Assembly: GCA_044892525.1 (NCBI GenBank) | Contig: CM097886.1 | Coordinates: 161,870,312-161,934,311, forward strand | From: Schmidtea polychroa | Lineage: Eukaryota | Direction: 5' to 3' | Length of the DNA: 64,000 nucleotides | Part shown: positions 1 to 58,918 of the stretch, piece by piece | How positions within the stretch are numbered: the first letter of the stretch is position 1 | Layout of the letters: the number at the start of each line of letters is the position of its first letter | Notes under the pieces: model-generated | Databases searched by the model: none | The model's input: only the letters and a program-made list of their open reading frames with translations | Told to the model about the DNA's origin: nothing | Position numbers and translations under genes: made by a program

Positions 1-1976
1 CTCTATTGCTTTCGCCATTTCTCTCAGATTGTGGATATTCTCTGATGTCTTTAAGATGATGTTAGCCAATGCTACTACTTGGCGTTTTTGCTTTTTCGCT
101 CCCATTGCTAAGATATCGCCTAATTGTTTATATCTTTCTTTCTCTTCTCGTTCTCTTGCTTCTATCGCTTCCTCGCCGTCCATATCGGCATATTCACGTT
201 CCTTTTTCCTCATTGCATGAATATGTCTGGCTTCATTTTCGCTTTCCGATGTGACATCCGTCTCGCTCTCGTCATCTGATGCCTGTCCCACTGCTTCCAC
301 TTCATATTCTGGAGGTTCCTCTTCTTCTTCCTCCGATTCACTTTCTGTCTCGCCAATGTCTGTTTCTACGAAGATTCCTTTCCGGATTTCCCATTCCTTA
401 TTTTCTGCATTCCACACTCTTTCCCATGGGGTTCGTCTGCAGGATCTGGTACTTAGTTTCGTGATTTTTCCTTGTAGTTCCTTTTCTTTTAATCATCGTT
501 GGTGAATTTCAATTATTTCTATAGATTTTCGATATAACGTTTTCATCCGGTTTCGTATTTCTTTTTGATGCGTTACATCTCTTGTTCGAAATTCATCCAT
601 TGGTACTATTTTGATTATCTGATGATCGTCCCACATACCCATTTCGCTCAACGAGGTGTCGTCCTCAGCTCGTAATATTATTTTATCGTACATCATGACT
701 ACATCATCTACCATACCATCGCTACTTTCGCTACGTACCTTTTCCGTTATCTCTTGGTTTATCTTTGATACCAAATCATCCACCGTACTCTGATTGCTCA
801 TTTTTATTCGTCGTTTCTCTTCGTTCGGTAACCATATGGTTATTTCTAACTTCTGTGGCTGGGTTTCTTTTAACCTTCCATATTTGTGGATCAAATTTAT
901 GGTTCTCCAATCACTCATCCGGAGCAATTCTGTATCTCGTAATCGGCTCATTAGTTCGTATATGGCTGGGGCTCGTCTGGCTATGAGTAAATCCCAGTTA
1001 TCTTCTACTTGTTCTTGAATTTGTTTGATCAGCTTGTCCAGGTTTCGTCTCAGAGTACATTGTTTTATTTGTTCTAATTTCAATTTGATACTAAAATCAT
1101 ATTCTGCCTTGGCATCTTTAGCCCAATCGTAAAGGTTGGCTGGTTGTTTTTCTTTGTGCAACTTTAGTATTTGCGTTTCTCCTGGCCATATTAGTGCGTC
1201 TACTGTGCATATCTAGTTTGATCTGTTCTCCTTGGTATTGATACAGATATTCTTTCTTTCTCGAACTTCCCAAATGTTCTGGTATCCAATCGAAAAGTTC
1301 GTCGGTGACTGTATTTTTAATCCACATTCTTTCAAGTCCTTTACTAGTTCCGATTTTTATTACATACCGCGTGGTATCGGCCTGCTTCATTTTTTCCATA
1401 TACTTTTTTATTATCAACTTTTCCTCGCTTGGTATTAAATCTTTCTCGTTTCTTTCCAGTTTCATCACTTTTTGCACGAATCGTCTGAATGGTATTACAT
1501 CGATGAACTCTTGATTTCTCACTACTACTGGGAGTATTTCCGTTACTTGTTTTATTGCCTCTTCTTTTTCTTTTCTCAATTTTATTTCGATATCTTCGTC
1601 TTCGTTTTCGCTGGATATCTCGCTTTTACTTTCGCTTTCGTCTTTCTCGATTATTAAGTTGTAATATTTCTCCCCCCAAACTGCTCACATAGTCTTCATC
1701 TGATGACGACGTACCTTTTGTCCTCTTCATCATGTTGATTCGCAAATTTCTCATCCTTGGTACTCTCTTTAGTTTCTTATTCTCGAATATCGTTGTTTCC
1801 TCAGATTCCAGTTCTTGTAGCATTTGGTGGTTTAGCTGACTGGTTTGTTCCTTGTTTCTGTTGTTTTCCTCCTCTACTTCTGTTTTTGTTTCCTCGTGTT
1901 TCTTTTCGATTTTATCTTTTATCTATTTCCAGAATATTTTCTGAATTCTCTGTTCTCATTTCCGTTGTCGTTTCTT
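1..1976 (-). pseudogene. Post-Gag polyprotein extension: charged coiled-coil, two ubiquitin-like domains, acidic tract
   Basis: ORF pieces 1626-1823, 1118-1579 and 493-1161 join through frameshifts. After a single TGA at 493-495 the frame stays open to base 1. Ubl-like patterns at about 1160-1370 and 601-849. Confidence 0.6.
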
Positions 1977-3335
1977 TTACTTTTTCTGGTTCAGTCTTGG
2001 GTTTTTCCCGTAATTGTAACAGTACTGGCTTTTCATGTCTTTTACTAACTTCATCATATTTATTCGCAATGGTTGTTCTTGTCGTTGTTGGTTGCGTTCT
2101 TGTTTTATCCTCTCTTCCTCGGCCTGTAATCTTTGCCATTCTTGTACATGTTGGTGTACTTCATAATTGTTGAGATTTTCGGTACTCCTCATCATACGTA
2201 TATTCTGAGTTTGTTGTGGTGCTGGTTCTTGTCTTGGTCTCATCATTTGTTGCATCATCTGTTTCATTTGCGAGATTTCTTGCATAACGTTCATTTGTTT
2301 TCCTTCACTGGGGTTACTTTGTCGTTGCGGATTCGCCATGTAATTAGTGTTTCGCTGTGGTGGTCGTTGTTGTTGGCCCCTTTCTCTGCAGTCTCTGGAG
2401 ATGTGACCTGGCTGACCACAGTTAAAACAACCTCTCAATTGGCATATATTTTCCGTATGCCCACGTCGTCCGCAACGATTACAATTTGCATTTCTATAAA
2501 AATCTCTGTCCCAGTGTCCTGGTTTACCGCATGTTCGGCACTGCTTGTTATCGTTCATATTTCGTCGATTATTAAAATTGTTCCCATTATTCAGGTTGTT
2601 ACGATCGTTGTTATTCCCATTTGCTCGTCCTTGTGGTGGTTTGAAAATTTGATGCGCTCCTGGTATAAATTGGTTCATTTTCGGTTCCTGATTGCTATTA
2701 TCCCCGTTATCCGCTTTCGCTATTGCTGTCGCTATCCTCCCATCCTCTTGCATAATATTCATTTGAGCTGGAAGGTGGAGCTCGCATCTTGTAGCCCAAT
2801 CTATGGCTTCCTCTAACGTTTTACACATTTGACAACCTACTGAGGCTCTTAGCTCTTCTCGGCGTAATCCCTCTATGAAATAGCCGATCAGATTTTCCTC
2901 TGGTAATTTTCCATTCATTGCTTTCTTCGCTAATCTCCGCAATTCACTGGCATATAATGTTATCGATTCGTTCGCTCTTTGTTTCCTATTTGCTAGTTCG
3001 CCCAACGCCTGGTTGATTGGCTTACTGGCTCCGAAGGTTTTCTTCAAAAATGTTTTGATATCTTCCCACTTCTCTAATTTCGTATCTCTCTCTTTAGCTT
3101 CTAAATATACTTCTAATGCACTATCGCACAAAAACAACGGCATCCTTTTACTAATTGCTTCGGGTGTCCATCCACACACAGTGATATAAACTTCAAAATT
3201 GGTTATAAACGCTGCTAACTTGTTTGCATTTCCATTGAACGGTTCTCCTCTGAACTTCTCTTTATACTCATCGGTTTTTACGACATTCGTCATGATTGGT
3301 GTTCTAGATTCGTCTGTCTCTTTTAGATTATCCAA
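1977..3335 (-). CDS. Retrotransposon Gag (capsid-like domain plus 3 CCHC zinc knuckles)
   Basis: Capsid-like motifs FNGNANKLAAFITNFE...WEDIKTFLKKTF...RKQRANESITLYASELRRLA...FIEGL. Knuckles CRTCGKPGHWDRDF (degenerate), CNRCGRRGHTENIC, CFNCGQPGHISRDC. Frame is open upstream to 3638, and with stops to a Met at 4013. Confidence 0.85.
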   Translation of the reverse strand: MDNLKETDESRTPIMTNVVKTDEYKEKFRGEPFNGNANKLAAFITNFEVYITVCGWTPEAISKRMPLFLCDSALEVYLEAKERDTKLEKWEDIKTFLKKTFGASKPINQALGELANRKQRANESITLYASELRRLAKKAMNGKLPEENLIGYFIEGLRREELRASVGCQMCKTLEEAIDWATRCELHLPAQMNIMQEDGRIATAIAKADNGDNSNQEPKMNQFIPGAHQIFKPPQGRANGNNNDRNNLNNGNNFNNRRNMNDNKQCRTCGKPGHWDRDFYRNANCNRCGRRGHTENICQLRGCFNCGQPGHISRDCRERGQQQRPPQRNTNYMANPQRQSNPSEGKQMNVMQEISQMKQMMQQMMRPRQEPAPQQTQNIRMMRSTENLNNYEVHQHVQEWQRLQAEEERIKQERNQQRQEQPLRINMMKLVKDMKSQYCYNYGKNPRLNQKK

Positions 3336-4349: not shown

Positions 4350-5110
4350 TGTAGAGTTTCTTTCTCTACTTCACTGGGATCCCTTTATTCAGTTAATTAT
4401 TCTCCTAATCCTTTATTCTCGATTGCTTTTTATTTTCCTTATCTTTGATTCGTTTTCTATTCTCTTCCCACTAAAGTTTACTAACATCTATTACGAGCTC
4501 GTTTATTCCTCTCTAAATTCAAATTTCCATATTTAATTTCAATTCGTTTCTAGCTAGCTTTAATATTCTATCTTACTGTAACTTTAGCTTCGATATGTTA
4601 TCTCATTGTAGCTTAACTGCTATCTCTCGCTCTTCTAGGCCTTTACGACTGGCTGGCACTATTCAACAGCTCAATCTACTTTGTCCTGACCGGCTGGACT
4701 ATTTGACAACTCGGTCTTACGACTGGCTGGCACTATTCAACAGCTCAATCTTCTTTATCCTGACCGGCTGGACTATTCGACAACTCGGTCTTACGACTGG
4801 CTGGCACTATTCAACAGCTCAATCTTCTTTATCCTGACGGGCTGGACTATTCGACAACTCGGTCTTACGACTGGCTGGCACTATTCAACAGCTCAATCTT
4901 CTTTATCCTGACCGGCTGGACTATTCGACAACTCGGCCTTAATATTTCTTACTCTGCATGCTTCTGCTTCTCTTTTTCCTCTTTTACCCTAAATTGCCAT
5001 TTCTCTCTCTCTACTTTTAATTCTGTCGACTTAATCTTTACCGCTTGAGAGTGTTTCCCCTTTCTCCCCTTGCTCAAAACGCACGACGATCGCGATGATC
5101 CATTTCTACA
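4350..5110 (-). repeat. Candidate 5' LTR (761 bp)
   Basis: 6-bp inverted termini TGTAGA/TCTACA, upstream of gag. Followed on the minus strand by GATTTTTTTTTGGTTTTAACC (T-run then TGG). No partner LTR in the window. Confidence 0.55.
4643..4938. repeat. Tandem repeat, 4 x 74 bp, each unit a dimer of related subunits
   Basis: Units start at 4643, 4717, 4791 and 4865. Subunits are actggctggcactattcaacagctc and accggctggactattcgacaactc. Confidence 0.95.
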
Positions 5111-5963: not shown

Positions 5964-6240
5964 AACTTATTACACTTCCACCTTTAACAAAATCAATGAA
6001 GAAAATCCTTACTATTGAGTTAGGCTGAATCGAAAACAATAACTAAATTTCGTCTTCAAAGTTTATCTGTGATGCTGGTTCTACGAACTCCTCTGATGTG
6101 GTCCTCGGTTAATAGTTGTATTAGTTTCTGAGTAGGTTCGGTTATCAGTTCGCTGATAGTTCTGAGTCTAATGAAAATTTTGGTTAACGGTCATATTAGA
6201 ATTGATGCTTACCTAATGAAAATTTTGGTAAACGGTAATT

Positions 6241-6293
6241 CTACTGATTTTTATGCTAGCTTATATAGCAAATTCTTATTTATGCGGACCAAT
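6241..6293 (-). promoter_or_regulatory. Putative core promoter of the RING ORF (inverted CCAAT, TATA, Inr)
   Basis: On the minus strand: ATTGG at 6293-6289, TATATAA at 6267-6261, TCAGT at about 6247-6243. If the candidate 45-bp intron 6168-6212 is spliced out, the first ATG is 5963. Confidence 0.45.
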
Positions 6294-6637
6294 CAAAATT
6301 GAGTACCGCTTATTTTATTAAATTAATTTGTTTTTTCCTATTTCTTTGGGTATTTTACTTATTTTTCCTATTTTTATTATATTTTTTATTTATTTCTTAA
6401 ATTCCTTATTATTTGTTGCGTTTTTTGATATCTTATTCATTATCTTATTACTTTACCTTTTAATTTTATCATTTTTATGTTTTGTTTTAATCTTTATATC
6501 TTATTTTATGGTTTATTTTATGCCTTGATTTATTTATTTTAGAATTTATTGTCTTATTTTATTTTATTCGTCTCCTTTCGATCTTACTTTCGACGACTGT
6601 GTTTTCGATTCAGCCCAACAGTATGGATGGGTATATG

Positions 6638-9600
6638 CAGGGCCGGCTTTAGTTGGAAGCGGTGGATGCAAAGCATCGGGGCGCCTCTCGGAAAGGGCGC
6701 TAAAAAATTTAGAATTTTAGTTTCTTTTTAATATTTAACAAAAAAACCATTAACAAATTTTTTTTTAATAAGAATTTTGTTTTTAAATAAAATTTCCTTG
6801 AAAAACTACTGGCCTACTAGTTTTCGAAGTGTTTAAGAATTGTTTAATTATTTCGCAAAACAAAATAAATTATACATGCATAAATTTATTTTGAAACGGC
6901 CTGCTATATTCGGTTTAGTTATTTCGATTAAAAAAATTAATGCTAAAAAAAATTATTTTAAAAGTCTACCAGTTCTATTCAGTTTTCAATCAGTTCAGTT
7001 GTTATTTGGTAAACTTTTTTCGCTAATAAAAGAAAAATTTAATATTAAAATTTTAATAGTAAAATAAAAAAGTGTTCAGTACAGTTTAATAGTAAAAAAG
7101 TGTTTTATTTCAGTACATTAGTTATTTTGCGGAATTGAATCATTGTACGGTGGTAGGTATTATTTAATTATTTTTATCTTTACTTCTAAAATTTATATTT
7201 TTTTAATTAAAAAAATTTTTATTAGCTTACCTATATCATAAAATATGAATTCAAAGACAAAATTATCCGGGTGTGAAAATCGAAAACGAAAGGCGAAGAG
7301 AGAGTTGGAGGAACAAAAAAATCAGGGAAGCCTTAACCAATATTTAAAAAAAGCTAATTTGACAATACCTACAATAACGTTAACGGATGATCAGATTATT
7401 CCAGAGGATAGCACAAATGGTGAAGTTAGAAATAATGCCACTAATGAGACACAATCTATAAATTTACAAACAGAAATAACATCTTCATCTAACAAAGAGC
7501 TTCAAACCATACATTTAACTGAAACTATAAGTAATAGTGCTGATTTTCATTCAATTGATCCCGCAACTTGGCCTAAATTTATTAATGATAAAATTAGAAA
7601 AATTATTATTGAGCAAGGACCAATGCAAATAAGGAAAGAAGTTTATCCCCGTGATGATGATGGACGAAGTTTTACTAATTATTATTACAATCGTAAATTA
7701 CCTAATAATGAAATTATACCAAGATCATGGTTAGTTTATTCAAGTTCAGTAAACCGTGTTTTCTGTTTTTGTTGTAAATTGTTTATAAATCAAATAGAAG
7801 GAAACCAGCATTTGATTATAAATGGTTTTAGTTGCTGGAGAAATTTGTCAAAAACACTTGCAGCTCATGAAGTTAGTACATTACATGTTAATTGTTTTTT
7901 AAAGTGGACTCAATTAAAAAAGAAAATGAACAACTTAACTACAATAGATGCTGAACTCGTAAAAGTATACGCAGTTGAAAAGAAACATTGGTACGCTGTT
8001 TTGGAGAGAATTGTCGAAATCATAAAATATCTTGCCAGACAATGCCTGTCTCTGTGTGGCTCGTCAGATACTATCTATGAAAAAAATAACGGTAACTTTT
8101 TAAAATTTGTAGAACTTTTTTCTAAATTTGACATAGTAATAGCAAATCATTTAGCAAAGATACAAAAAAAGGAGACACAAACAGTTCATTATTTAGGCAA
8201 AACTATACAAAATGAAATAATATCGTTGATCTCTTCGAAAATTTTGCAAAATATTTTTCAAATGATAATTAATGCCAAATATTTTTCTCTAATATTAGAT
8301 TGCACTCCTGATATTAGTCATAACGAACAAATAACATTTATAGCCAGATTTGTCAATAAAGATGAAAATAATGAAGTTGCAATAAGCGAACATTTTTTGG
8401 GATTTTTAAAAGTATCTGACTCCACAGGAAAAGGTTTAGCAACTTATCTTATTGACAACATTAAAGATTTAGGTTTGAATATTAATGATCTACGTGGACA
8501 AGGTTACGATAATGGCGCAAATATGCATGGGAAAAATAATGGGGTTCAAAAACGTATTTTAAATTTGAATTCTCGTGCATTTTTCGTCCCATGTGCTGCA
8601 CATACACTTAATTTAGTAGTGAATGATGCAGCCAAAATTAACACAGAATCATTTAGTTTCTTTTCCACTATTCAAACAATTTATAATTTCTTTAGCGCTT
8701 CAACAAAACGATGGGAGTTCTTAAAAAAAATACTAAAATTACAGTAAAACCTTTGTCAGCCACCAGGTGGGAATCAAGAGTCGATGCCCTTCGTCCACTT
8801 AGGTTTGAAATAGCTGAAATTTTAGATGCTTTAGTTGACATTTATGAAAACCTAGAAATAGATAATAATACAAAGCATGAAGCTAAGGCTGTGGCTTTCA
8901 AAATAAAAGAGTATGAATTTATATGTTCAGTGGTTATTTGGTACGATGTTTTAAGTAAAGTTAACGTTGTTAGTAAACTGCTCCAAAATCCAAATCAAAA
9001 CTTAAATGTTTCTTCAGTTGCGTTAAATAGTCTTATTAAATTTATTGAAGAATATAGATCCGATGAAAATTTTAGTCTTATTCTTCAAACGGCAGAAAAT
9101 ATAGCAGCTGATTTAGAAATACCTGCGAAATTCAAAGATAATACGTTACGAAGAAGAAAGAAAAAAATTTTTGGTTATGAATCTGTAGACGAAACGCCAG
9201 TTGATCCGATACTTAAATATAAAATATCATTTTTTCTGCCAATTTTAGATATTACTATCAATTCTTTAAAAGAAAGGTTTAATCTTTTCACAAAATATAG
9301 TGAAAAATTTGAATTTATACATAATATAAAAGAAATTAACAAAATGGATGATAATACATTAAAAAAACATTGTTCTGATTTAGAAATAATGCTAACCGAT
9401 GGCGAGAAAAAAGATATATCTGCAACAGAATTATTTAATGAAATAAAAATAGCAAAGGAATTTTTGAAAGACTTTGAAAACCCACTAAACATCTTGCAAT
9501 ATATATATATATATAAATCTACTGGATTCCATTTTTCCCAATTTTGTAATTGCTATTAAAATATTTTTAACTTTACCAGTTTCAGTTGCTAGCGGAGAAC

Positions 9601-17129: not shown

Positions 17130-20100
17130 TTGTCCGTCACAACAACATCTTGTTCCAAGTCCGCGTAACCCAAAATTTATGAAAGACCTATCGAAACATT
17201 TTGTAATGGACGAAAACGAGTTTTTTTACCTTAAATAACGGAGTCCCCATCGTCGACCCTTTTTCAATCTCGGAACAATCAATAGTCACACATTTTTTCA
17301 GTACAAGAGTTTGTGCCAAAACAAACATCGAACATCACTTATCTACCCCGATCGGTCGAACCCAATTAATATTTTTTGACTCAGATTGCACCCCATCATC
17401 TTGGTTCCGCAATTTTGAGTCGCGCACAAATGCCAACACCAAATCAAGACAAGACTCCTTGTTAGACGCGAAACCTGACGAATTAATGTCAGAATTAGGT
17501 TCTCAAATTTCTGACGCATTAGACTCCGTAAACCCTTACGAGTCCATCAAAACAGCGATACATAAGAAATACTCATCCACAAACACTTCATCAATAGAGA
17601 AACTATCAAAACCTATTCCATAACAGGCCCAGCACCATCATCATTTTTATCCCAACTCGTACGAGAACTAGAAAATGCTCATACCGGTCTATCTAAAGAA
17701 CACTGCTATCCTATTCCACTATTTTTTAACAGCGCTCCTACATCACGTCCAAACCTCCCAACTCGTCGTCGATTCAGTGGATACTATCCACCTGTCAAAA
17801 TCTCTGATAAACTGATCACCAGACCACCTATTCGTAACACAACCACCTCCATTTCATCTGTCTCCGACCCCTTACTTGAAGAACAGATATCCTACTTGAC
17901 AAAAGCTGTCACCACGTTAACTAACCCCCCTCGACAAATTCCATACTCCCAAAGAACTGACAGGTCGAACTCTTTTCCACCTCTGACTTGTTTTTTACAC
18001 AAAAAAGTTTTCATCGGACGCTAGAACATGTCACATAGGATGTTCTTGGCCAAACCCCCGTTAACCTTAAGAGTTATTCCCATATGCACTTACCACAACC
18101 TCTTCGGGTTACATGCACAGAAATGCCTTCCAGGCTGTACTTTTGAGAATCGTCACTCAAAAAAACCACAATACAATAAAACTACTCCAATAACCCCCAA
18201 AAGAAAAAACTAACTTCTCTTTCTAACTAACTCAAAACTAACTCAACTTTCACTCACAATTTCCACATAACAGACACAATTCATCCAATACTAGACTCCG
18301 ATTTCCTCAGCGAACAATCCCTCATGATAGACTGCAAAAATCGACGACTATTCACTATAAACAGACATCTCAATCCTATATCCACAAATATATCACCAAA
18401 CAGAACAACAATCTCTACACAGACATCTCCAACGACCCAACTCAGATTTATCCAATCTACTGACACAATAGAACGCAATAAACACATGTCAGATATCCAA
18501 CACTCACCTAATTCAGAGCCAATGCACGACATAAAAGAGACAATCTCAACCACATACCCAAACCTCATCACAAAATGCCCTATCATACCACCTACAACTC
18601 CATCGACTCATTATATTCCGACATTACCGTGCATACCACAACACAACCGAGCCAAACCCCTCCCACCCATCAAACTCGACGCAGTTAAAGCCGAATTCAC
18701 CAGTTTAGAAAATGCAGGCATTATACGCCGTTCTTCATCTTCATGGGCGTCGCCAATACAGATCACCAAGAAAGACGATTCATTCAGGCGTTGGGGCAAC
18801 TACCGTCAATTCAATCAAATGACTGTTCACGATGCATACACAATGTCACTTATCAAAGATTTAATAACCCGCTTTTCACAATCCACCATATTTTCAACTA
18901 TTGACCTTTCGAAAGCCTACCATTAGTTTCCTGTACATATCGATGACGTTCCCAAAACCGATGTAACCACACTATTTGGAAATTTCGAATACATTTACAT
19001 GCCTTTCGGCCTAAGGAATGCAGCTCAGTCTTTAGAACACTTCATGGACACAATTTTCCGGGAAGTCCACCACGCTTTTGCATACCTAGACGATATATTC
19101 AAATCATTACCCGACCGTGACACCCACAATAAAGACCTACACACTGTTCTTGACATATTGAACCGTTATAACTTACAGATCAATGTAAATAAATGCGATT
19201 TCTATCAAAAACGCGTAAGATTTCTTTGTCACATACTCTCATCTACGGGTTGCGAACCTTTTCCTGAATAACTTGACATAATCTGCAGCTTTCCATTACC
19301 CGCCACTGTAACACAATTACGTAGCTTTTTGGGCATTCTCAATTTCGGCATAGATTTATAAAAAACGCATCACACATAATGGCACCTCTTTCAACATTGA
19401 AAAAAGGAAAGAAAAACTCCACCAGTAACTGGTCCGAAACAACACGTGACGTATTCAACACAGTCAAAGACGCTCTATCCAAGATTACAACTCTTCACTA
19501 CCGGAGTCATGACCTCCCATTTACCCTCACAACAGATGCATCAAATATCGCCGCCGGCGCAGTCCTTCATCAAATTAAGAGCAATGTTTCACTCCCAATA
19601 GAATTTTTCTCTAGAAAATTTTCATCGGCGAAGTCAGAGTACAGTGCATTCGACAGAGAATTACTTGCTATTTTTCTAGCTGTTAAGCATTTTGGTCACA
19701 TTTTAGAATTTAGACAATTCACAGTCTAAACTGATCACAAACCTCTTATCCACTGCCTCACCATGAAAGACCCATCAAACAGGGTACATCGTCAGATAAC
19801 ATACCTATCATCTTTCGACATTAAGTTCGCCCATATATCCGGTAAAGATAATGTAATCGCTGACTATCTTTCCAGAAACATTTCAGCATCTATCTCATCA
19901 ACCCCAGTAATTACTCAAAATGTTCTCCGTTCAACCCCACCGACATCAGAAGATTTCGTCCATTTCAAAGACTCGCTACAGACAATAGACGGCATACATT
20001 ATGAAACAATGTATAAAAACATCCTCAGACCAATCCTACAGTCTTCGCTTCGGAAAAAAGCATTTCTCGCCATTCACAACTTGCACCACCCAGGAATTAA

Positions 20101-22665: not shown

Positions 22666-25651
22666 GTAATCTTAAGCTTAAATTTGATGTATTTTAAATA
22701 AATATTAAGGATCTTGAAAAACATTTTGTTCCATTAATTCGTAGATTAAGTAGTGGTGAATGGTTTACAAGTAGAACGTCTGCGTGTGGATTGTTTAGCT
22801 GCTGTTATGCTCGATTGTCCACTAATTTAAAAACCGAATTAAGAAGATTGTTTCGTCAATTGGCAACTGATGATACTCCCATGGTACGCAGAGCTGCTGC
22901 TTCTAGATTAGGCGAATTTGTAACGGTTATGGATTTGGAAGACGTTAAATCAGATTTACTTCTACTTTTACCAGTTGTAGTTCAGGTAGATTTATTTTAT
23001 GGCTTTATGAATTTAAACTTAAATACGAAAAATTTTGAATTTATTTTGCAATTACTTATAAATTTAATTATTCATTTTATGAATAAAATTCTAAATGTAT
23101 TACTAACCCTTCATATTTTCTATAACATTTAAATTGAAATTCTTGCAAAATATAATAAATTACAAAATTAAATATTATTAAAATGATAAATTGATGGAAA
23201 TTGAAATAATCTGACAATCTGTGAGGTTTTGTTTCACCAAAAATATTTTAAGTCTTTAAGGCCAGAATTTTGAAATTAGAGTTGTTTTTAATCATTAACT
23301 CTACAAACTCAACAGCAGAATTTAAAATGTTTTTTTAATTGGCTTGTACATATTTTAGTGGCAATTCCATTTAAAAAGTCTAAAAATAGAACTCTTGTAT
23401 TTATATATTTTATCCAATGATTTAGTAAGTTTGTCTTTACCGTCACTCATTTTGGTTCCCTAACGAATAGTGGACATTTGAAATGTAAATTATATAAAAT
23501 AATCAATACTACAGGTATTCCCCGGTCGTAAGTCGATTAAGTCGAATTTCATAAAAAAAAATTAAGAAAAAAATTACATACTGTACTACTAACTTTGAGG
23601 GTCTGGAGAACTACCCAAAATTCATATAATTCAAACTTTATTTAAAATAATAATAACACAAAAATACATATTGAATTAAAAACAACACATTAAATATATA
23701 ATAAAACAAAAATACATAATAAAAACTATATATAATTGAACAAAAATATATTATTTAATTTAGAGTTATTTAAATGTCTTCATCATCCGTACTTATTACA
23801 AGAGTGCAATGATTGCGTTGTCTTCAGAAACAGAATGTCCAGTGCTGGTTTTCTTAAAAAATTTGTCTAATGTCGTCTGAACAGTTTGAGCTTTCATTTC
23901 CCGGTAAATTTTATGATAACAAGCCAAATTTTCCTGAATCACCCTATTTATTTCTGAGAATCGCTCTTCATTTGCATCCATTTGTTGTGATTTTAGCATT
24001 CCCTTATTAATTTGGTGAAAAGCAGCACTCATTTCTTTTGTTGAGAATTTTTTTGTGGACTTTCTTCACCTGATTTGCTTTTATCTTCGTTTTCTGCAAC
24101 ACATTGTGCTTCAAATTCCTCCTTATGAATATACGTACGTTCAGACATCTTCCAATATAGACCAGTTTCATCTACATTAAATATTTGTTCCTTTGTATAA
24201 TAGTTTTCTTTTAGAAACTCGTCGAATTTAACTACAAATTCCTCAGCAGCTTTATAATCAGCACTAGCTGCCTCTCCACCAATTTCTACATTTTGAAAAT
24301 TAGCTCTCTTCCTAAATCTTTGAAACCAACCATGGCTTGCAGTAAAAGTCTGATCATAGTTTTTACCGTCCTTTAATTTTAACATATTGAAAAGACTACA
24401 TGCTTTGGTTTTGATAATTGCGAGACTTAGAGGAATTCGTTTTTGAATCAAATCCTCCATCCAAATCACTAATAGTTTTTCCATATCATGTATGGGACCT
24501 TGTCTATTTTTGGTTATTATTGTAGATTTCATAGATGTCGATTCTTTTACAGCTTCCAAAATTCGTTTTTTATCCTTTAAAATCGTCGATATTGTTGAAT
24601 GAGACCGTTTAAAATCATGTGCTATATCTTTCACTTTTTTACTTTTTTTCCCAAGTCTATAACATTTTCTTTTATTTTTACTAGTTTTACTAGTTCCAGC
24701 CATTTTTGGGATGATATAAAATTATTCACTTAAAAAAATTCCGACTTAGCTAATGTAATGTATTATTTGTACTTAAATATGTATGTAAATCGATTTTTTA
24801 AAAAGTTTTCTCAAATATTTTAGGGATTCCCCGTAACTACATATTTGTCTTCCTTGAGTATTTTCTATGAAAAAAATTGGAAAAAAAATGGTCGTAAGTN
24901 NNNNNNNNNNNNNNNNNNNNNNNNNNNNNNNNNNNNNNNNNNNNNNNNNNNNNNNNNNNNNNNNNNNNNNNNNNNNNNNNNNNNNNNNNNNNNNNNNNNN
25001 NNNNNNNNNNNNNNNNNNNNNNNNNNNNNNNNNNNNNNNNNNNNNNNNNNNNNNNNNNNNNNNNNNNNNNNNNNNNNNNNNNNNNNNNNNNNNNNNNNNN
25101 NNNNNNNNNNNNNNNNNNNNNNNNNNNNNNNNNNNNNNNNNNNNNNNNNNNNNNNNNNNNNNNNNNNNNNNNNNNNNNNNNNNNNNNNNNNNNNNNNNNN
25201 NNNNNNNNNNNNNNNNNNNNNNNNNNNNNNNNNNNNNNNNNNAATTGACACATTTATTGAAATATTTAAATAGCATATATAAGTAGTTATTGGAGGCTTT
25301 ATTTAAAATATTTTCAAATATTTTATTAGGCTTCTAGAAGCTAATTATAGAAGCTGTAAAAAAATTTAAAAATTTTTAGTTTGTGTCATTTTGAAATTTT
25401 AAATGTATAAAAAATTTTAAAAGTTTTTAGTAAAACAATTCATTATATTTACAACCAATGAGAATTAAGAGAAAGGAAATCAAAGAAAGATTGAAAGGTA
25501 TTTTGGGGAAGAACATTGCTAAATTCCAGGAGATTGACAAGGACTATCGTATAGTCGAAAATTCTTTCATTAAATACATTATTTGCAGCAAAAGGCTTAA
25601 ATTATCATTTTATTGTTTTAAATAATAAATGCTGCTACCAAGCAATCATCA

Positions 25652-32749: not shown

Positions 32750-35700
32750 CTCAATTAGTTATAGGGTTTTCCGACCTATTTAGACACTTTAACGATCAAA
32801 TTAGACATTTCAAAAAAGTGATATATATTTCACAATCAATTTAGACAATTTTCCAATCAATTTAGACAATAAGTTTGGCAAATCCACAACATTTTTATTC
32901 ATATATCAATTCCATATTTCTACTTCTTTCGATATAAGTTAACATTCTCCTGAAATACCCTCCACAATCTTCACTTGTTAGGATGTCAAATCCTGCCATA
33001 ATCAAATCATTTAATTCATTTTCGTTGTTTACATTACCTCTGAGCACATGATTCTTCCATTTACTGAAACAAGTCTCAATAATGTTAAGAAATGGAGAGT
33101 AGGGGGGTAGATATACAACTTTGATGTTTTCAGCTTCACATATGGAAATAAAACGAGCACAATGATGTATACGAGCGTTGTCGATGATAACAATTGGATC
33201 TGTAATTCCTTTGTTTATCGATAAATTGTTTAACTCTACCATATAACTCAAAAATTTCTCCCCGTTTATAGGTCCTGGATTTATTTCATACTTTAGAGTT
33301 CCATACTTTGATACTGCTGCAATAACGGAAATGTTGCGAGATCTTGTCGCCGGTGTATTTACAATGACACTTGTACCAACTAAACTCCTCCCCCGTTTGA
33401 CTCTTGTGCAAACCTGGAACCCAACTTCATCCACAAATACAAATGCTTTATCATCATTATTTAAAAGCATACTTAAAAATCTCTCAGCGTAGATACGTCT
33501 CTTCTCCAATGTCGTAGGATCGTTTCTCTTAACCGGTGAAAGTGTTACGCATTTCAAAGTATAATGGAAATTGCGTAAACAACGATCAATGGTGGGGATA
33601 GATACATTTTTCCCAATATTATTTATCGTCATCTCAACCAAGTTTTTCAGTGTCAGAATTGGGTTTTCATCAACCCATTCTTTAATAGTTTGTTTTTCAC
33701 TCGGAGTCAATTTCGATCTTTTATCGCCGCCCCTTTTCAGTGGTGTTATTCTTCCTTCAGATTCCCACCTTTTTACGATATTATATACACTTGTTCTTTT
33801 AATTGCGACCATTTCAGATATGCTGGAAATCGTAATGTTCTGAGAATAAAGCGAAATCACACGCTCTCTTGCGTGCTGGTCAATTGTATCATACTTTTTT
33901 ACATGCGAATCTACACTGACAGTCGTTTCCAATTCAACAGAGGCATTATTTGATTCGTCCCTCACATCATTCACCCCCGGGGATGATGGCTCGTTTGTGT
34001 CAATAACGTTATTGTTTATGTGCCGGTCATTTACGTCATTTACCGCTGTTTCTTCGTTATTATTCATGGGTATCAAATGCAGAGGGAATGTAGACATATT
34101 TTAAATTGTTTAATAAGTATTCTTTAATTGATTGTCTAAATTGATTGGAAAATTGTCTAAATTGATTGTGAAATATATATCACTTTTTTGAAATGTCTAA
34201 TTTGATCGTTAAAGTGTCTAAATAGGTCGGAAAACCCTATATTTAAATATCTCTAATATCTCCTTGTTTAAAAGGTTTTGGCCAATCAACGTTGCGAATT
34301 ATCATTTTTCCATCTCTGCTTCGTAATTCATAACTGTTTGCATGGATCTTTCTAACAACGACAAAAATTCCTGTATATCGATCTTCTTTTTTCCCTCACA
34401 TCTACTTTAACTAAAACTTCTTCATTTATATCGAATTCTCGGTGTATCCGGTTCTTATTTTTATAATTTAAATTTTTTTTGTTTTGATTGCACTTCCTCA
34501 ACTATTTTACTTCTATCGTTGTATATTCTTTTATTATGATTCCATATCCGTAAACCAAATACTGCTTCTGAGTGACTTTTTCCAATTGTACTTAGAATTT
34601 TTCTGGCAACTTATTGGCTGCATTTTCATCTTTAAATTATAATTTTTTGAATACCCCTTGTAATTTTTTTTCAATGATTGTTAAAAATATGAATTCAAAA
34701 TTTATATATTCATCTAAATGCGATAGTATATAAAATTTAAACTTTAGAAAGTAAAAAACTACATAATTTTTTGTTTAGGGGTGCCATGAAAAAACTCGAT
34801 TTTTTGGTGTTTAGTGGGCTAGAAAAGGTTGGGAATCACTGATTTAGAATATAAATTAATTTTAACAAAGGATGTTTAAAAATCAAATCTAGGATGTTAT
34901 AAAACTAGGACCCTGGACGTGATTTTGTTGAGTCTGATAAGTTTAATAAATTAAATAGTGTGAGTAAGGTTGATTATCCTAAATTTGTGTTGGTATTGCC
35001 GTAATCAGAAGGTTTTAAGGATTAAAAAAGGAAGATAAGAAAGCAGTTATATAATTTGTTTATTAATAAGTCTAGAACTCCGGTAGGACTATGTTCTGAT
35101 CTAGTTTTACAGTATACACCAAACACCACTGAGATACGTTTCCTATAATATTAAAAACTGCACACAAGCAAAACATACACTAAAAAACACATACAAACTT
35201 TCGATTCATAGAAATGCACCGCTGAGATACGTTTCTATAATAACTTTATTTTAGACAATTTTGAGAAAAAAATAATGGCAAAAAAAATTTTAAATATATT
35301 TTTAATGAAAATATCAAAAGCAGATGGATTTAATTCAATGTTTTTTCAATCTAGATTTGATTTCCTGAAAGAAGCCCCTTATATTGAGCTCAGAAAAAAA
35401 ATTACAAAAATTAAAAAATATATTTTTTTTATACTCGTCGATTTTTCCAAAAATGTTTTAGAAAAATACATATTTTTGGTGATTGATTTATTTATTTAAT
35501 TATAATTAAAAATATATTTTATTCACATTATATCGAAACAATTCCAAAATACTTAAAAATAAATGTCATAAAATTCCTAAAAAAACCCTGAAAATTAATT
35601 AAAAATAATTTATAATAGAAATGTTGATAAAAAAGTAATATTTAATCCTTTCCTGTCTGAATTAAGAGTTGAAAATGGCGTCCTAAAATCACTTGTTGCT

Positions 35701-52184: not shown

Positions 52185-54382
52185 CAGGGGTGCCCACTAA
52201 TTTCTCTAGGAGAGCTACATTCACATCCAAAATGTGTATGCGATCTACTTTTTTAATACTTACATAATATTTACCTACAATGCAATAAATTCATCACAAT
52301 AAAACAAATATATGTCAAAATATGGAAAATTAAACTATATAACTATTTATTATAAAAAAATGTAACTTAGGAAATCAAATTTAATGAAAATTATTTTTAT
52401 ATAGAACTTTTCGATGTTGATGCTCTACATTGGGTTGAATCCACTAGATTTTTGTAGTTTGGGATATAAGTGCTAAGACAACTTCTTAGGCTGGATTCCA
52501 AATGGTCATCTGTTAATGTTGCTCGGTACTTTGACTTTATAATTTTCATATGTGAAAATGCAGACTCACATAAATAAGTTGAACCAAAAAATGATACTAA
52601 ATTTTCGAAGCATTTTTTCAAGTTTGAATATCTATCCTCTGATAGATATTTCCATACATTTGGTTCGGAAGATCTTGATTTAATGAAGATATCATTTTGA
52701 AGTGTGATTATTTCCATTTCAAGTATAGGGATATCCATTTTAAACAAAGTTGAAATTGAATCTGCAACAATTTCTGGTTTTATTTTTGGATTAAACGGAA
52801 AGGATATAAATGCAGCCACAATTTCAAGTTTCTTGAAGTCTTGAAAACGTCTCTCGAACTCTAAAACCAAAATTTTGATCTGTTCCGGATATCTCGTAAT
52901 ATTAAAGTTGACATTTTCAGATTCTTTTAATTGTGACAACATATTTGGAAAATAACTTAAATTTTTGTCTTCTATTTTGGTAATAAGTAAATGAAGCTTT
53001 TGTATAAATGCATTGATTGAACTTATCATATCGAATATCAATTTATCCTTACCTTGTAAGTCGAGATTTAATTTATTCAGAATTGCAGTAATATCTACTA
53101 AAAATGCCAAATCCAAGAGCCAAACATCATCTTCCAATTGCTTGAACTCATCACCTCTTGCGGCAAGGAACAACTTAATCTCAGAAAGCAAATCTCTAAA
53201 TCTTTGTAAGAATTTTCCTCTACTTAGCCACCTTACATCTGAATGCATCAGTAATTCAGCAGGACCTTCGCTATTACTTTCTTCAATTTGTAATTTGAAA
53301 AGTCGTCTCTGAAGACTTCTTGCACGAATCGAGTTAGCAATTTTGAATGTTATTTCCATAATATCTCTCATATTCAGAATTTTAGCACACAAGGCTTGTT
53401 GATGAATAATACAGTGATAGGAAAGAAAATCTGGGAATTCACAATCATTCCTACAATATGCTATAAATCCGTTGTGACGCCCTGTCATAGCTGGTGCGCC
53501 ATCTGTTGTTATTGATACAAGCTTACAAATTTGGAGCTGAATGCTGTTGGCATAAGCTTTAAAATTCTGAAATATATCCTCACCTCGAGTTTTACTTTTG
53601 AGTGGTATAATTGTTAATAATTCTTCCTTCGTAGAAAAATCTTTAAAGACCATTCGAATAAAAATTATAAGCTGCGAAATATCAGCCGCATCAGTTGATT
53701 CGTCTGCTTGCAATGAAAATGCGGTACAATTTCCTATGTCTAACATTAACTGATTTTTTAAATTGGTACTTATTTCTTGGACTCTCCGTGTAACTGTATT
53801 ACGGGACAATTGCATATCAGTAATAGCAGAAATTATATCTGATTTATTTTTAAAATCACAAAATAATGATTCTGCCGCTTCTAAAAATGCTTCTTTTACA
53901 ATTACTCCATCACTAAAAGATTTCTTATTTTTTGCCAGAATGTAGCTTACTCGGAAAGATGCAGCTGTAGCTGACTTTGATTTGGATGTTAGCTTCGTAA
54001 AAATGACTGTTGAAAAGAAATGCATGTTTTCAGTTCCATGATTTTAGACTTGCGTAGTTCACTGTCAAGTGGATAATCAACTGCAAAATTCTTATGAATT
54101 GTCTTGAAATGCCTTTCCAAATTCCCTCTTTTTGGTAATGAAATAGTAGCTTTACAAATTAAGCAACAACATTTACCTTTAATCATTACAAAAAAGTACT
54201 CCTTCTCCATTTCTTCGCTATAATGATAAGTCTTGGCTTTTTTATTTAGCATTTTTAAACAAAATTAATTTAACAAAAAAGCTTAAGAAAATTTTTCACT
54301 TTGTTATTTTTTTTATGAAGATCTACTAAAAAATCCTTCGCGATCTACCGGTAGATCGCGATCGACCTTATGGGCACCCCTG
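52185..54382 (-). mobile_element. hAT Buster/Charlie (SPIN/GTF2IRD2-like) transposon
   Basis: TIR CAGGGGTGCCCA, perfect TSD ATTTATAA. Confidence 0.95.
52397..54252 (-). pseudogene. SPIN-like hAT transposase with a single frameshift at about 54005
   Basis: BED finger (CLIC...RHFKTIH), LQADESTD, ITTDGAPAM, HCIIH, VRWLSRG, FGSTYLCESAFS. ORFs 53989-54252 and 52397-54025 differ by a 1-nt loss. Confidence 0.92.
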
Positions 54383-55925: not shown

Positions 55926-58918
55926 GTGATATTCGAATTTTTTAACAACCGGTACGCATGGAAAAAAATCTATTGTAGGTTATATTTACTTCATAATAGT
56001 TATTTATTTACATATTTACATAAGAAATACATATATTATATATAATAGTATATAAAATTAATTAAATAATTTCCAAATTAAATTTTGGTTTTGGGACGGC
56101 AAATTAGGCGCGGCTGCTTTGACACGTCTGTCACTTGCCATATGATGCCCTTCTCGCAACCATAATTTAACATATGGTGTTGCATCAAAATCCTCAATTG
56201 ATTTTCCCATTAAATTTATTGTCATTAAATGACTTGTTGTTTCAATTAACAACGAATTTCTCTTATCATAAATGATATTGTTCATTGTGCTGAGTCCTCT
56301 TTCAGCTTCTGCGGAATTAACAGCAATTACATTTAAAATTCTTTTTGCTCTCAAAATAGTATTAATATTTTTAGATTCTCTATCTCGCACATCAACAAAA
56401 TCTCGAAAATCATTTACTGGAATGATGTTTTTGATTATTTTATTTAACTGCTCTAACCTATTTTCACCTTCAATCCATGGTGCTTCAAAAATATCACCCG
56501 GCCATGTTTCTGGATTTAATAAATTAAAGCAATTTAAGAGATTATTATAGTTTTCATTTTTATCGTCTAATAGCAAACGCGTTTTCATATGTTTTTCTAA
56601 ACAATCAAAAAATTTATCTCTCGAAACAACAATTGATGTTTTTTTTCTATTAATTTCAAATGGAATATTGTATTTTTTCGTTTTAATAATATCATCTGCT
56701 TCTTTTTCATATGTTCCTTTATTTAATTTTAAATGTTGGAATAGATTTATCGTTCGCCTTATCAAGCTTTCAGCTCTAATTAATGAAATATCTCTTTCTT
56801 GTAAAGCTGTAGACAGTAAAGAAATTTCTTCTAATATGTCGTTTATTAAACCTAAATCTTTTAAAAAGTTTTCATTTTTGAAATATGACATTATTCCAAT
56901 TTCTTTATTTTGACTAAAGTGAATATATAAGGCCTGATATGATTTCCAAACTGCTTTGGCGGTCCTAGCGCTACAGGCTGCCCATCGAGGACCAAATATT
57001 CTACCTATTTTGTGTACTTCAGTGCCAAGTTCTTTAGAAACATTATTTAATTCTCGTTGATGTTTATTTGAAGTATGATAATACGAATAAAGTTTATCGA
57101 GAAAATATCTAAAGTTATTTACTTCATTTACTTCTTTGATAACATCATCTAGAGTTAACTGAATACGATGAGCTAAACAGTGACAGATGCTAATACCTGG
57201 AAAATGTTCTAAAATTCTTGCAGAAACTCCAGCCTTTTTTCCTAACATTACACTAGCACCGTCTGAGCAAAATCCAATAAGATTTTCATGTAAATATTTT
57301 TCATTAAAACCATGTTTTTCAAGAACTGATATTAAGGTTTTAAAAATTATTTCTGATGTTGTTCCTTCTAATTCGACAAGATCAATAAAAACTGTTACAC
57401 TATCATCGGAATCTTGAATTTCAGATTTCAAATAAACTACTAAAACGCTTTTGTGTGAAACAGTTGAGGCTTCATCAATAATAATTGAAATTTTACAACC
57501 TGTATTTATCAGTTTTCCAAAAATAATTCTTCTTATTTCTGTAGATATAAGCTTTGCGACAAGTGGAACTATAAATCTGGAATGTAATGAAAATCCAAAA
57601 TCTACATTATTTTTTTTCTGTAAATCAATTAATTTTTTAAAATCACTGAATGGGTAATTGTTTTTAATTATGAAATAGATCGTATTAAAAATGTTTACTG
57701 TGCTGTTTAAATACTTTTCATTAGCCACATCGAAAGATTTGGAAATTATATTTGTTTCACCAATTTTTATTATTTCCCCAGCTTTTTTATGTGAAGCTGA
57801 TTCATTGTGTTCCTTCAATTTTTTTCTCATTGAATATTGTAAATTTTCTTTGTTCGAGCCATGAGCTTTGACAGAACATGATTTCCACTCCACAGAAATG
57901 TGTAAATGTTTAGCAGTTTCTAAATTTAACGATTCTACTTTCGAACACCACTGACATCCCACATTTTCATCGCTAACAACAATAAGCCACTCGTATTTAG
58001 TTTTAAAATAATTTAGTTGTTTATCATTCCAAAAATGTAGTAACGCAGCATCACGAGACGTTCCAGCTTTTTCCGATTGGTGTTGAACTTCAGAAGTATC
58101 ATCTTTTTCTTTTACCTGTTTTGTTTGATTAGAATTAGTAATATTCTCAGCTTGCTGTTCAGGGTTTTTGGTTATTTTTATAGATTTGCTAAAAAAGTCA
58201 TCCAAATTACCTTGCCTTTTCATTTTTAGGTTGAAACAAAGAAAATATTTAATAATTAATTAATAATTAATTAGAAATTTAAATCAATTTAAAATCTTCA
58301 TACTTGCACGTTAAAACTGAATTTAATAGAGATTAAAAGTAAGGGATAACCATTCACCATAAAAATATTTATACTACTAAACTTTTTATTTAGAGTAAAT
58401 ATATCAAAATAAAAATGTATTCAAAAAGGGAAATTCCCTTTTTATTAAAAGAAAAATATTTTTTTTTACAGAATTTTCCGTTAACCCTTTCAAGCTTAGT
58501 GGTTACGCAGTGAAACCACCTATTAAAATGCAACTTTACACATGCTCAGTAGGAATTTTTCAATTCCATAAATTTTGTTCTATAATTCAATGCTATCTCT
58601 TGGATTGTAGTGGAAATTAAAAGTACTAAAATTCAAATTAGACAGTTTTAAATAGATTTTTTTTTACTAAAACCGAAAAAAATTTTAAATCACAAATTTT
58701 TATTTTATTGTAAGATTTTTTGTATTTGATCGATAATGGCAGGTAAATATTTATATTTTTTTAGTAATTTAGAATGTTTTTATCAATACTTTTACTTTTA
58801 CATACTTTTACTTAAAAACATACTTTTTTTTAATATACAACAACCGGTACGGAAAATTTTAAAAATGTTAACAACCGGTACGAGCGTACCGCCCCGTACC
58901 GGCTGAATATCACCACTG
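55921..58918 (-). mobile_element. hAT transposon inserted in a (TA)n tract
   Basis: TIRs TAGTGGTGATATTC / CAGTGGTGATATTC, TATATATA on both sides, repeated subterminal ACAACCGGTACG. Confidence 0.92.
56058..58223 (-). CDS. Intact hAT transposase (KIAA1586/ZNF862-like), 721 aa
   Basis: Zinc finger CQWC...H...H, IIIDEAST, FCSDGASVM, HCLAH, PRWAA, VNSAEAERGLS; no stops. Confidence 0.92.
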   Translation of the reverse strand: MKRQGNLDDFFSKSIKITKNPEQQAENITNSNQTKQVKEKDDTSEVQHQSEKAGTSRDAALLHFWNDKQLNYFKTKYEWLIVVSDENVGCQWCSKVESLNLETAKHLHISVEWKSCSVKAHGSNKENLQYSMRKKLKEHNESASHKKAGEIIKIGETNIISKSFDVANEKYLNSTVNIFNTIYFIIKNNYPFSDFKKLIDLQKKNNVDFGFSLHSRFIVPLVAKLISTEIRRIIFGKLINTGCKISIIIDEASTVSHKSVLVVYLKSEIQDSDDSVTVFIDLVELEGTTSEIIFKTLISVLEKHGFNEKYLHENLIGFCSDGASVMLGKKAGVSARILEHFPGISICHCLAHRIQLTLDDVIKEVNEVNNFRYFLDKLYSYYHTSNKHQRELNNVSKELGTEVHKIGRIFGPRWAACSARTAKAVWKSYQALYIHFSQNKEIGIMSYFKNENFLKDLGLINDILEEISLLSTALQERDISLIRAESLIRRTINLFQHLKLNKGTYEKEADDIIKTKKYNIPFEINRKKTSIVVSRDKFFDCLEKHMKTRLLLDDKNENYNNLLNCFNLLNPETWPGDIFEAPWIEGENRLEQLNKIIKNIIPVNDFRDFVDVRDRESKNINTILRAKRILNVIAVNSAEAERGLSTMNNIIYDKRNSLLIETTSHLMTINLMGKSIEDFDATPYVKLWLREGHHMASDRRVKAAAPNLPSQNQNLIWKLFN

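Follow-up and report, generated by a model that had tools for sequence, protein, structure and literature searches.

The window, a stretch of 64,000 nucleotides from Schmidtea polychroa (contig CM097886.1), contains, on the minus strand, the 5' portion of a Burro-type LTR element whose copy here is broken. This copy begins with a TG at position 6620 and ends with a CA that lies some 10 kb outside the window, past its start, and 4-base target-site duplications match at both of its ends. Internal deletions have shortened it to about 16.6 kb in total; most of the 5' LTR, the part of pol that follows integrase and the accessory ORFs are absent from it. Its decay is also visible in frameshifts between about 1630 and 2000 and at about 1205, and in two in-frame stops. 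What is left of the 5' LTR is, at 5985-6414, 96% identical to the 3' LTR of the same copy. The parts of the element that lie in the window are the following:

5985..6620, minus strand: remnant of the 5' LTR, with the TG start at 6620; the 4-base duplication is found again behind the CA that closes the 3' LTR (locus L031, position 53).
4643..4941, minus strand: 74-bp tandem repeat in four copies, in the 5' leader; full-length copies have a homologous stretch.
2769..3254, minus strand: Gag capsid domain (Retrotrans_gag, Pfam E 2e-10), inside a 553-codon open frame (3638-1980).
2388..2540, minus strand: three CCHC zinc knuckles (Pfam E 2.4e-10), the first lacking its last Cys in this copy.
1728..1739, minus strand: last of four candidate protease sites in the stretch from the knuckles to U1; the others would start at 2294, 2201 and 2063.
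1376..1650, minus strand: acidic, then predicted helical segment preceding U1, ending in a helix-end motif seen ahead of other units.
1150..1375, minus strand: U1, likely a beta-grasp domain of the ubiquitin-like kind; this copy is frameshifted at about 1205, and other copies have the frame open.
856..1149, minus strand: helical spacer between U1 and U2, conserved (dN/dS 0.030), with no family assigned.
595..855, minus strand: U2, for which a ubiquitin-like beta-grasp fold is predicted; its helix and loop are lengthened, and it has no Gly-Gly.
223..594, minus strand: post-U2 helix, predicted hairpin and acidic tract, with an in-frame stop in this copy.
211..222, minus strand: candidate protease site that would close the U1-U2 block.
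1..210, minus strand: helical segment leading to U3; U3 and the Bcl-2-like, Env, PR and RT-RH parts continue beyond the window's start (locus L031).

The original prediction had described two ubiquitin-like (Ubl) domains downstream of the gag knuckles, the second of them across a frameshift. The peptides that it quoted are present, on the minus strand, which it left unstated; its first segment is U2 (855-595) and its second is U1 (1375-1150). The Pfam matches to Retrotrans_gag and to the CCHC knuckles agree with the position that it gave them, and a frameshift does interrupt U1 in this copy.

Other copies of the element, which we call family A, were collected from the genome. A DNA search yielded 328 candidates, of which 40 were scored, all of them 95-100% identical; among 29 further loci that were retrieved, 17 have the whole 3.9 kb open. 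The search with the U1-U2 protein yielded 847 candidates, and the 145 that were scored are the best-scoring ones, so that intact copies are favoured among them. The query was covered at full length in all 145, with no internal stop in 140; 59 lie within a frame of 4,732 codons and 64 within frames of at least 4,700 codons. Thus, the whole polyprotein is a single ORF in many copies, a question that the original prediction had raised, and the region is not missing from the other scored copies, which it had named as the finding that would speak against it.

The order of parts in the frame is Gag, three knuckles, U1, U2, U3, Bcl-2-like domain, Env, PR-RT-RH-IN and ankyrins, and a TRAF protein with RING and MATH (Pfam E 6e-27) is encoded by a separate ORF downstream of ORF1. 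Pfam placed a Monjiviricetes_fusion glycoprotein (E 1e-70) between Gag and PR, and matched Ank_2 (E 2e-17); the Bcl-2 match is weak in family A (E 0.057, below the cut-off). No BIR match, and no dUTPase-like match between PR and RT, was obtained with Pfam on the scanned frames; the published dUTPase call used HHpred. The Pol order PR-RT-RH-IN (Pfam, loci L047 and L048) is that of Ty3/gypsy elements. Both full copies that were mapped, 33.1 and 30.3 kb from LTR to LTR, exceed the 30 kb of Burro/GYPSM1. In one full copy, the LTRs are 3.9 kb long and 99.7% identical, indicating that the family moved recently; TG..CA ends and 4-base duplications were present in 3/3 copies examined. To our knowledge, no LTR retroelements larger than those of the Burro type have been described. 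Family A has three CCHC knuckles after Retrotrans_gag, two or three being expected of Burro/GYPSM1, and the 4,732 codons of its ORF1 were counted as agreeing with the expected length of about 4,900-5,100 residues. Placed by its architecture against the published description, the element is very probably a Burro-type, envelope-carrying Ty3/gypsy element.

Four further envelope-carrying families (B, C, D and E) are present in the same genome, all with the order Gag, knuckles, Ubl, Bcl-2-like, Env and PR. Family B (4,791 codons) carries U1, U2, MATH and U3; families C (3,334 codons) and D carry two units each, and family E (about 3,050-3,090 codons) carries one. The Bcl-2-like domain occurs in all five families, with Pfam E values of 0.002 to 8e-5, below the cut-off, in C, D and E. 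Between A and B, the identity is 36% in U1-U2, 46% in U3, 35% in the Bcl-2-like domain, 51% in the capsid, 58% in Env and 89% in RT-RH. Word-indexed protein searches found no relatives, and a HMMER scan of 1.84 billion protein representatives gave only two matches outside the genome, P0002 and P0003. The former contains U1, U2 and MATH; its U1-U2 and that of family B are orthologous to the U1-U2 of family A at 33-36% identity, and MATH follows U2 in frame in both of them. In P0003, the post-U2 helix is joined to TRAF-type zinc fingers, with 35% identity to the TRAF ORF of family A; TRAF is a separate ORF in family B as well. Apart from these families, a BEL/Pao family in the same genome carries a GG-bearing di-ubiquitin fused to Gag.

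The clearest structural result was obtained for U2. The AlphaFold2 model, built from a 10-row alignment of orthologues only, gave U2 as beta-beta-alpha-beta-beta-beta, in the order of ubiquitin, with pLDDT values of 63-89 for the block. Comparison with 48,161 chains by VIA-align had its best match at Z 10.1 (rmsd 2.3 A, 76 residues), and all of the 50 rows listed cover U2; a second structural comparison reached up to Z 10.8 (rmsd 3.2, 81 aligned), and Foldseek on the orthologue model gave E values of 2e-5 to 3e-4. The leading VIA matches, to UBX, ubiquitin, SUMO, FERM F0 and ISG15, were tied within about 1 Z, so that they name no partner. Weak Pfam matches to beta-grasp families were also found, to UCH_UBL1 (E 0.017-0.1, with almost the full profile aligned), OTU1_UBXL (0.002), PI3K_rbd, NPL4 and UBX, mixed with unrelated weak ones and with none at the cut-off. 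The earlier reading of a ubiquitin beta-grasp thus stands for U2, which, as far as a predicted model can tell, almost certainly has the ubiquitin fold. The AlphaFold run on the single sequence of U1-U3 (563 residues) was uninformative, with a mean pLDDT of 38, only the beta-beta-alpha starts and no Foldseek match at E 0.001.

For U1, the orthologue model showed the same order of strands and helix as in U2, at pLDDT 37-57, and none of the listed VIA rows covers it. Several Foldseek rows span about 260-290 columns on tandem ubiquitin chains, which suggests that in the model both units match tandem ubiquitin. The ESM Atlas, considered for named clusters only, pointed to clusters of ubiquitin and of Rad60/SUMO (0.90-0.92, sharing 141-160 features), which is no more than a lead, and one obtained for U2 as well. 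It was through U1 that the profile of U1-U2 reached a redesigned ubiquitin, at E 1.4; profiles of U1 only and of U2 only found no ubiquitin in the PDB. Pfam assigned no beta-grasp family to U1; its matches were to Caulimovir_coat_dom (E 0.0009-0.06), NSUN5 and FN3. The first of these was rejected as the identity of U1, since the orthologues in family B do not show it.

A signal common to the units was sought with profiles built without U1 or U2, against 500 shuffles of each sequence. The scores of the three U1 orthologues were reached by 5, 0 and 0 of the 500 shuffles and those of the U2 orthologues by 3, 4 and 9, as compared with 22-356 for six helical controls. The profile of 12 units from the five families matched 406 PDB sequences at E 1 or lower; among the best 60 of these 406, almost every one is ubiquitin, ISG15, FAT10, ubiquilin or a related UBL, with single domains down to E 5e-10. 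None of the units reached the Pfam cut-off by itself, and when whole polyproteins were searched with HMMs made from subsets of the units, U1 and U2 scored no better than decoys. Taken together, the second beta-grasp unit of the original prediction survives in part: the order of strands and helix and the leave-out test (3/3 orthologues) speak for it, the low pLDDT and the missing Pfam family against it, and we regard U1 as likely to be a beta-grasp domain.

No C-terminal Gly-Gly was found in any of the 12 units checked, which bears out the view that these are integral, non-conjugatable domains. The third unit, U3, lies about 90 bases beyond the window's start; its Pfam match to ubiquitin (E 0.003, residues 1272-1306) is below the cut-off, and it is 43% identical to the family B unit that lies between MATH and the Bcl-2-like domain. 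The similar endings of U1 and U2 had been taken as a sign of internal duplication, which our comparisons do not support: U1 and U2 are 12-18% identical across three lineages, no more than either is to other units, and their profiles do not align (E 0.65, 1 column). The ending that they share is that of the common last strands of the fold. Each of them shows a weak alignment to the pooled other units (E 0.005; U1 0.0045), and a helical part together with its Ubl may have been repeated as a unit at a much earlier time. A similar helix end precedes 11 of the 12 units, as compared with a background of 6.9%, for a motif that was chosen after the fact; in profile searches, a helical segment from one position does not retrieve those from other positions above decoys. 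Two candidate identities for the helical parts were discarded, a TFIIS N-terminal domain for the segments that precede the units (no Pfam or PDB support) and a BTB domain between U1 and U2 (unsupported by the model, with only weak KCTD and phosphatase matches by phmmer against the PDB).

Selection on the units was estimated as dN/dS between two subfamilies of copies (9 x 5) that are about 17% apart in DNA. The values were 0.018 (0.004-0.045) for U1, 0.024 (0.008-0.053) for U2 and 0.047 for U3, next to 0.022 for the capsid, 0.005 for RT and 0.043 for Env; with dS at 1-2, near saturation, and most of the frame constrained, they do not rank the units above other domains. The flanking linkers gave 0.096 and 0.147, and the linker 1339-1505 gave 0.036. 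Indels were absent from U1, U2 and U3 in 24/24 copies and occurred in the upstream linker in 5/24. Clearly, the Ubl codons are under purifying selection, as would be expected if the original prediction was right, and the units are functional parts of the polyprotein, integral to it and fixed in the family, not a chance insertion.

The next question is whether they act as parts of Gag. U1 and U2 sit about 360 residues past the last knuckle, inside a Gag-accessory-Env-Pol polyprotein, and a four-residue motif recurs at the junctions of its domains. Retroelement proteases cut at such domain junctions. The motif has 8 matches in family A as compared with 1.6 in shuffles, and 7 as compared with 1.6 in family B (0 of 1000 shuffles); as it was picked by eye on family A, only B serves as a partly independent test. 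It occurs at matching places in both families, after the capsid, after the knuckles and after the U2 block, and in A also before PR and after IN; a looser form marks the RNase H-integrase junction in both. A site of this type is kept in 24-25 of 25 copies at each of 7 places. Families C, D and E show no enrichment (1, 0 and 0 matches, D and E being scanned over the first 1,867 and 2,158 residues), and the motif is absent after MATH in P0002. Between the knuckles and U1 of family A it appears four times, and these four candidate protease sites ahead of the units make it likely that the units end up in a separate product. The description of a Gag carrying Ubl domains is thus right as to the reading frame, which the units share with Gag, and less so as to the product, given the distance from the knuckles and the sites in between. 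We consider that the U1-U2 block is probably released from Gag.

If cuts occur near residues 651 and 1166, they would free a product of about 515 residues, composed of a helical segment, U1, a second helical segment, U2, a helix and an acidic tract; in family B and P0002 this product would carry MATH too. As the block precedes the first membrane segment, it would be cytosolic, and U3 and the Bcl-2-like domain would remain attached to the hydrophobic segment ahead of Env. The TRAF and Bcl-2-like company points to host ubiquitin and death signalling, as if the U1-U2 product could work with the TRAF and Bcl-2-like products of the element in keeping the producing cell alive or quiet, a role suggested by this company only. 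Judging from these neighbouring domains, we lean slightly towards a host-signalling role of the block. We give an even chance to the reading that it is an accessory protein, cut from Gag, which takes part in the ubiquitin and cell-death signalling of the host as a scaffold or mimic that cannot be conjugated.

The units might instead serve the element's own assembly, by binding Gag, nucleocapsid-RNA or the Env tail, or by stabilising the polyprotein, with no ubiquitin partner in the host. The integral Ubl1 of coronavirus nsp3, which binds the nucleocapsid protein, offers an analogy. The constraint on the units is as strong as on the capsid, acidic tracts flank them, they are only 9-25% identical to host ubiquitin, and Ile44 is lost in most of them, all of which would fit such a role. 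However, the number of units changes from 1 to 3 across families that have Gag, Env and Pol in common, U1-U2 has diverged between A and B far more than RT-RH and more than the capsid, and the neighbours are TRAF and Bcl-2-like domains. We regard self-assembly as a rather unlikely explanation.

The original prediction had suggested that a Gag carrying Ubl domains could dock on proteasome receptors or host E3/AAA machinery; in this reading, the units would remain part of Gag and bring the particle to proteasome receptors or to AAA machinery of the p97 type. UBLs of the Rad23/Dsk2 type dock on the proteasome through a Leu8-Ile44-Val70 hydrophobic patch and Gly47. By a register set by eye (the automatic alignment is one column off for U2), U2 has Met at the Ile44 position and Val, Leu or Ile at Val70 in A, B and P0002, which together with the shared frame with Gag, and with the FAF1 UBX, Ddi1 and Dsk2 UBLs among the tied top fold matches, would suit docking. 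These hydrophobic residues at 44 and 70 are, however, all that U2 keeps of the patch; Leu8, Gly47 and the Phe-Pro turn of UBX domains (in the loop of strands 3-4, named in the title of 3qca) are missing from it, the turn in A, B and P0002 alike. U1 keeps Gly47, its residue at 44 being Tyr and that at 70 polar, and U3 has Gln at 44. With no more than 1 Z unit between them, the fold matches single out no partner, and four candidate cleavage sites lie between the knuckles and U1. Docking of the Gag particle is therefore improbable. Still less probable, to the point that we would not expect it, is that the units mark places for processing by deubiquitinases of the host, as pestivirus inserts or the BEL/Pao di-ubiquitin spacer would: the viral fold matches include fragments of pestivirus polyproteins, and another element of this genome has the GG-bearing fusion to Gag, but GG is absent from 12/12 units, and the three of family A are 12-25% identical to host ubiquitin. 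The notion of a chance resemblance, or of an insertion peculiar to the decayed window copy, draws on the sub-threshold Pfam scores and the broken state of that copy, and can be dismissed, for U2 as refuted, in view of the full-length matches, nearly all without a stop, the orthologues in B and P0002, the predicted fold and the purifying selection.

Returning to a host-directed U1-U2 product, we would speculate further, and only tentatively, that Burro-type elements evolved a family of ubiquitin-mimic effectors, in which a repeated helical-domain-plus-Ubl unit (1-3 copies in five families), released by the protease, was wired to captured TRAF and Bcl-2 domains as a virus-like suite against host death and ubiquitin signalling. 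If the block is such an effector, it would be a retrotransposon accessory protein in the sense of complex viruses, in a regenerating animal. Independent of that, about half of the Burro-type polyprotein was previously unannotated, and two domains are added to it here, one well predicted and one likely; the number of Ubl units varies from one to three among five families of one genome, and the candidate sites provide a testable cleavage map.

Ubiquitin-fold domains in polyproteins are also known from RNA viruses, to which no relationship by sequence is established. Ubl1 and Ubl2 of coronavirus nsp3 are, as U1 and U2 would be, integral domains of a viral polyprotein and have no GG. The ubiquitin inserts of cytopathic pestiviruses keep GG and serve as cleavage signals for host deubiquitinases; in contrast, U1 and U2, having no GG, cannot serve as such signals. 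With type II UBLs (Dsk2, Ddi1, BAG1 and the UBX of FAF1), U2 has in common the predicted fold (Z 9-11, rmsd 2.1-3.2) and the absence of GG. It differs from them in sequence (7-21% identity) and in its longer helix and loop, and no UBA, BAG or UBX Phe-Pro signature was found.

The closest comparison is with the Burro elements themselves. A Ubl domain in a Ty3/gypsy polyprotein was implied by the original prediction to be new, and this basic surprise is already in print: the polyprotein of planarian Burro/GYPSM1 is listed with one 'Ubi2/SUMO-like (PF11976)' motif, between MATH and BCL-2 (PMC6431247, section 7). By its position, this motif would correspond to U3, not to U1 or U2; the latter two precede the place of MATH, and the text of that section does not mention them. 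Our literature search on several Ubl domains in Burro-type elements returned only this paper as relevant, naming one motif. U1 and U2 thus appear to be additional to the published Ubl, one well predicted and one likely, and what is new is detail on a known type of element. Giant Burro elements are also mentioned in PMC11410931, and, according to PMC8532177, BURRO1 transcripts rise after smedwi-2 knockdown, with the loss of PIWI silencing. The GAG-ENV-POL errantiviruses of Platyhelminthes, Nematoda and Bryozoa described in PMC13524379 have an HSV/gB-type Env between gag and pol, the position that Env occupies in family A; ubiquitin, SUMO and Bcl are absent from the main text of that source.

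Family A shares with Burro1/GYPSM1 of Schmidtea mediterranea a length of more than 30 kb with one ORF of nearly 5,000 residues, retrotrans_gag with three knuckles, the Ubi/SUMO-like motif, Bcl-2-like domain, ankyrins and MATH/TRAF, and an env in frame between gag and pol with matches to mononegavirus-type glycoproteins (PMC6431247). It differs in that ORF1 has no MATH, the TRAF gene being a downstream ORF, and in that the frames scanned gave no BIR match. An ORF1 without MATH, and a MATH/TRAF in an accessory ORF, are features that family A has in common with the Burro-like element of Dugesia tigrina; in the latter, the accessory ORF is upstream and ORF1 has 5,140 residues, two knuckles and a midasin-like region, whereas in family A TRAF is downstream and the knuckles are three (PMC6431247). 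Family B, with 4,791 residues and MATH in frame, has the exact published order of Burro1/GYPSM1 (PMC6431247).

The layout of family A, the giant Burro-type envelope-carrying Ty3/gypsy element, is common to four further envelope-carrying families of the S. polychroa genome (B to E; L100, L107, L118 and L124-L128), whose elements have one to three ubiquitin-like units each; within family E, a subfamily is set apart at about 76% protein identity. The comparison of the family A polyprotein frame (L047) with family B (L118/L119) showed 89% identity in RT-RH, but 35-58% in Gag, the accessory domains and Env. This difference may reflect either faster evolution of the accessory regions or recombination.

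Downstream of the giant polyprotein frame, ORF1, families A and B carry a TRAF-like accessory ORF, composed of a RING-like start, zinc fingers, a coiled coil and MATH:

L036:6823-8256, TRAF-like accessory ORF of family A
L119:7939-9399, TRAF-like accessory ORF of family B

In family B, this ORF brings the number of MATH domains to two. A further three accessory ORFs matched no Pfam family.

Just past window position 1, the family A copy encodes a Bcl-2-like domain that contains a BH2-like motif (L031; residues 1506-1735 of L047). The hydrophobic segment ahead of Env follows this domain directly, and could also serve as its membrane anchor. In many places in the genome (e.g., L132 and L133), there are also many short frames of 152-180 codons, present in multiple copies, that score as Bcl-2; they lie outside the long ORFs, and several of them have an internal stop.

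Copies L034-L037 and L039-L042 are similar in their coding regions, and their LTRs match well at the ends only, with 65-70% matching in the middles. Inside these LTRs, there are open frames of 200-400 codons.

The window also holds remains of other transposons:

7242-9559, 52397-54043 and 56058-58259, hAT-type DNA transposon (DUF4371, DUF659, Dimer_Tnp_hAT)
24029-24721, Tc5/CENP-B type DNA transposon
32895-34100, Tc1-like DDE_3 DNA transposon
18231-18926, weak RT fragment

Distinct from the Burro-type families is a multi-copy BEL/Pao-type element (L148:3674-7858 and L151-L153; C1, C2 and C3), in which two near-canonical ubiquitin units with GG are fused ahead of a DUF1759 Gag, and are preceded by host gene pieces that differ between copies (dual-specificity phosphatase; TCP-1 and Ras-family).
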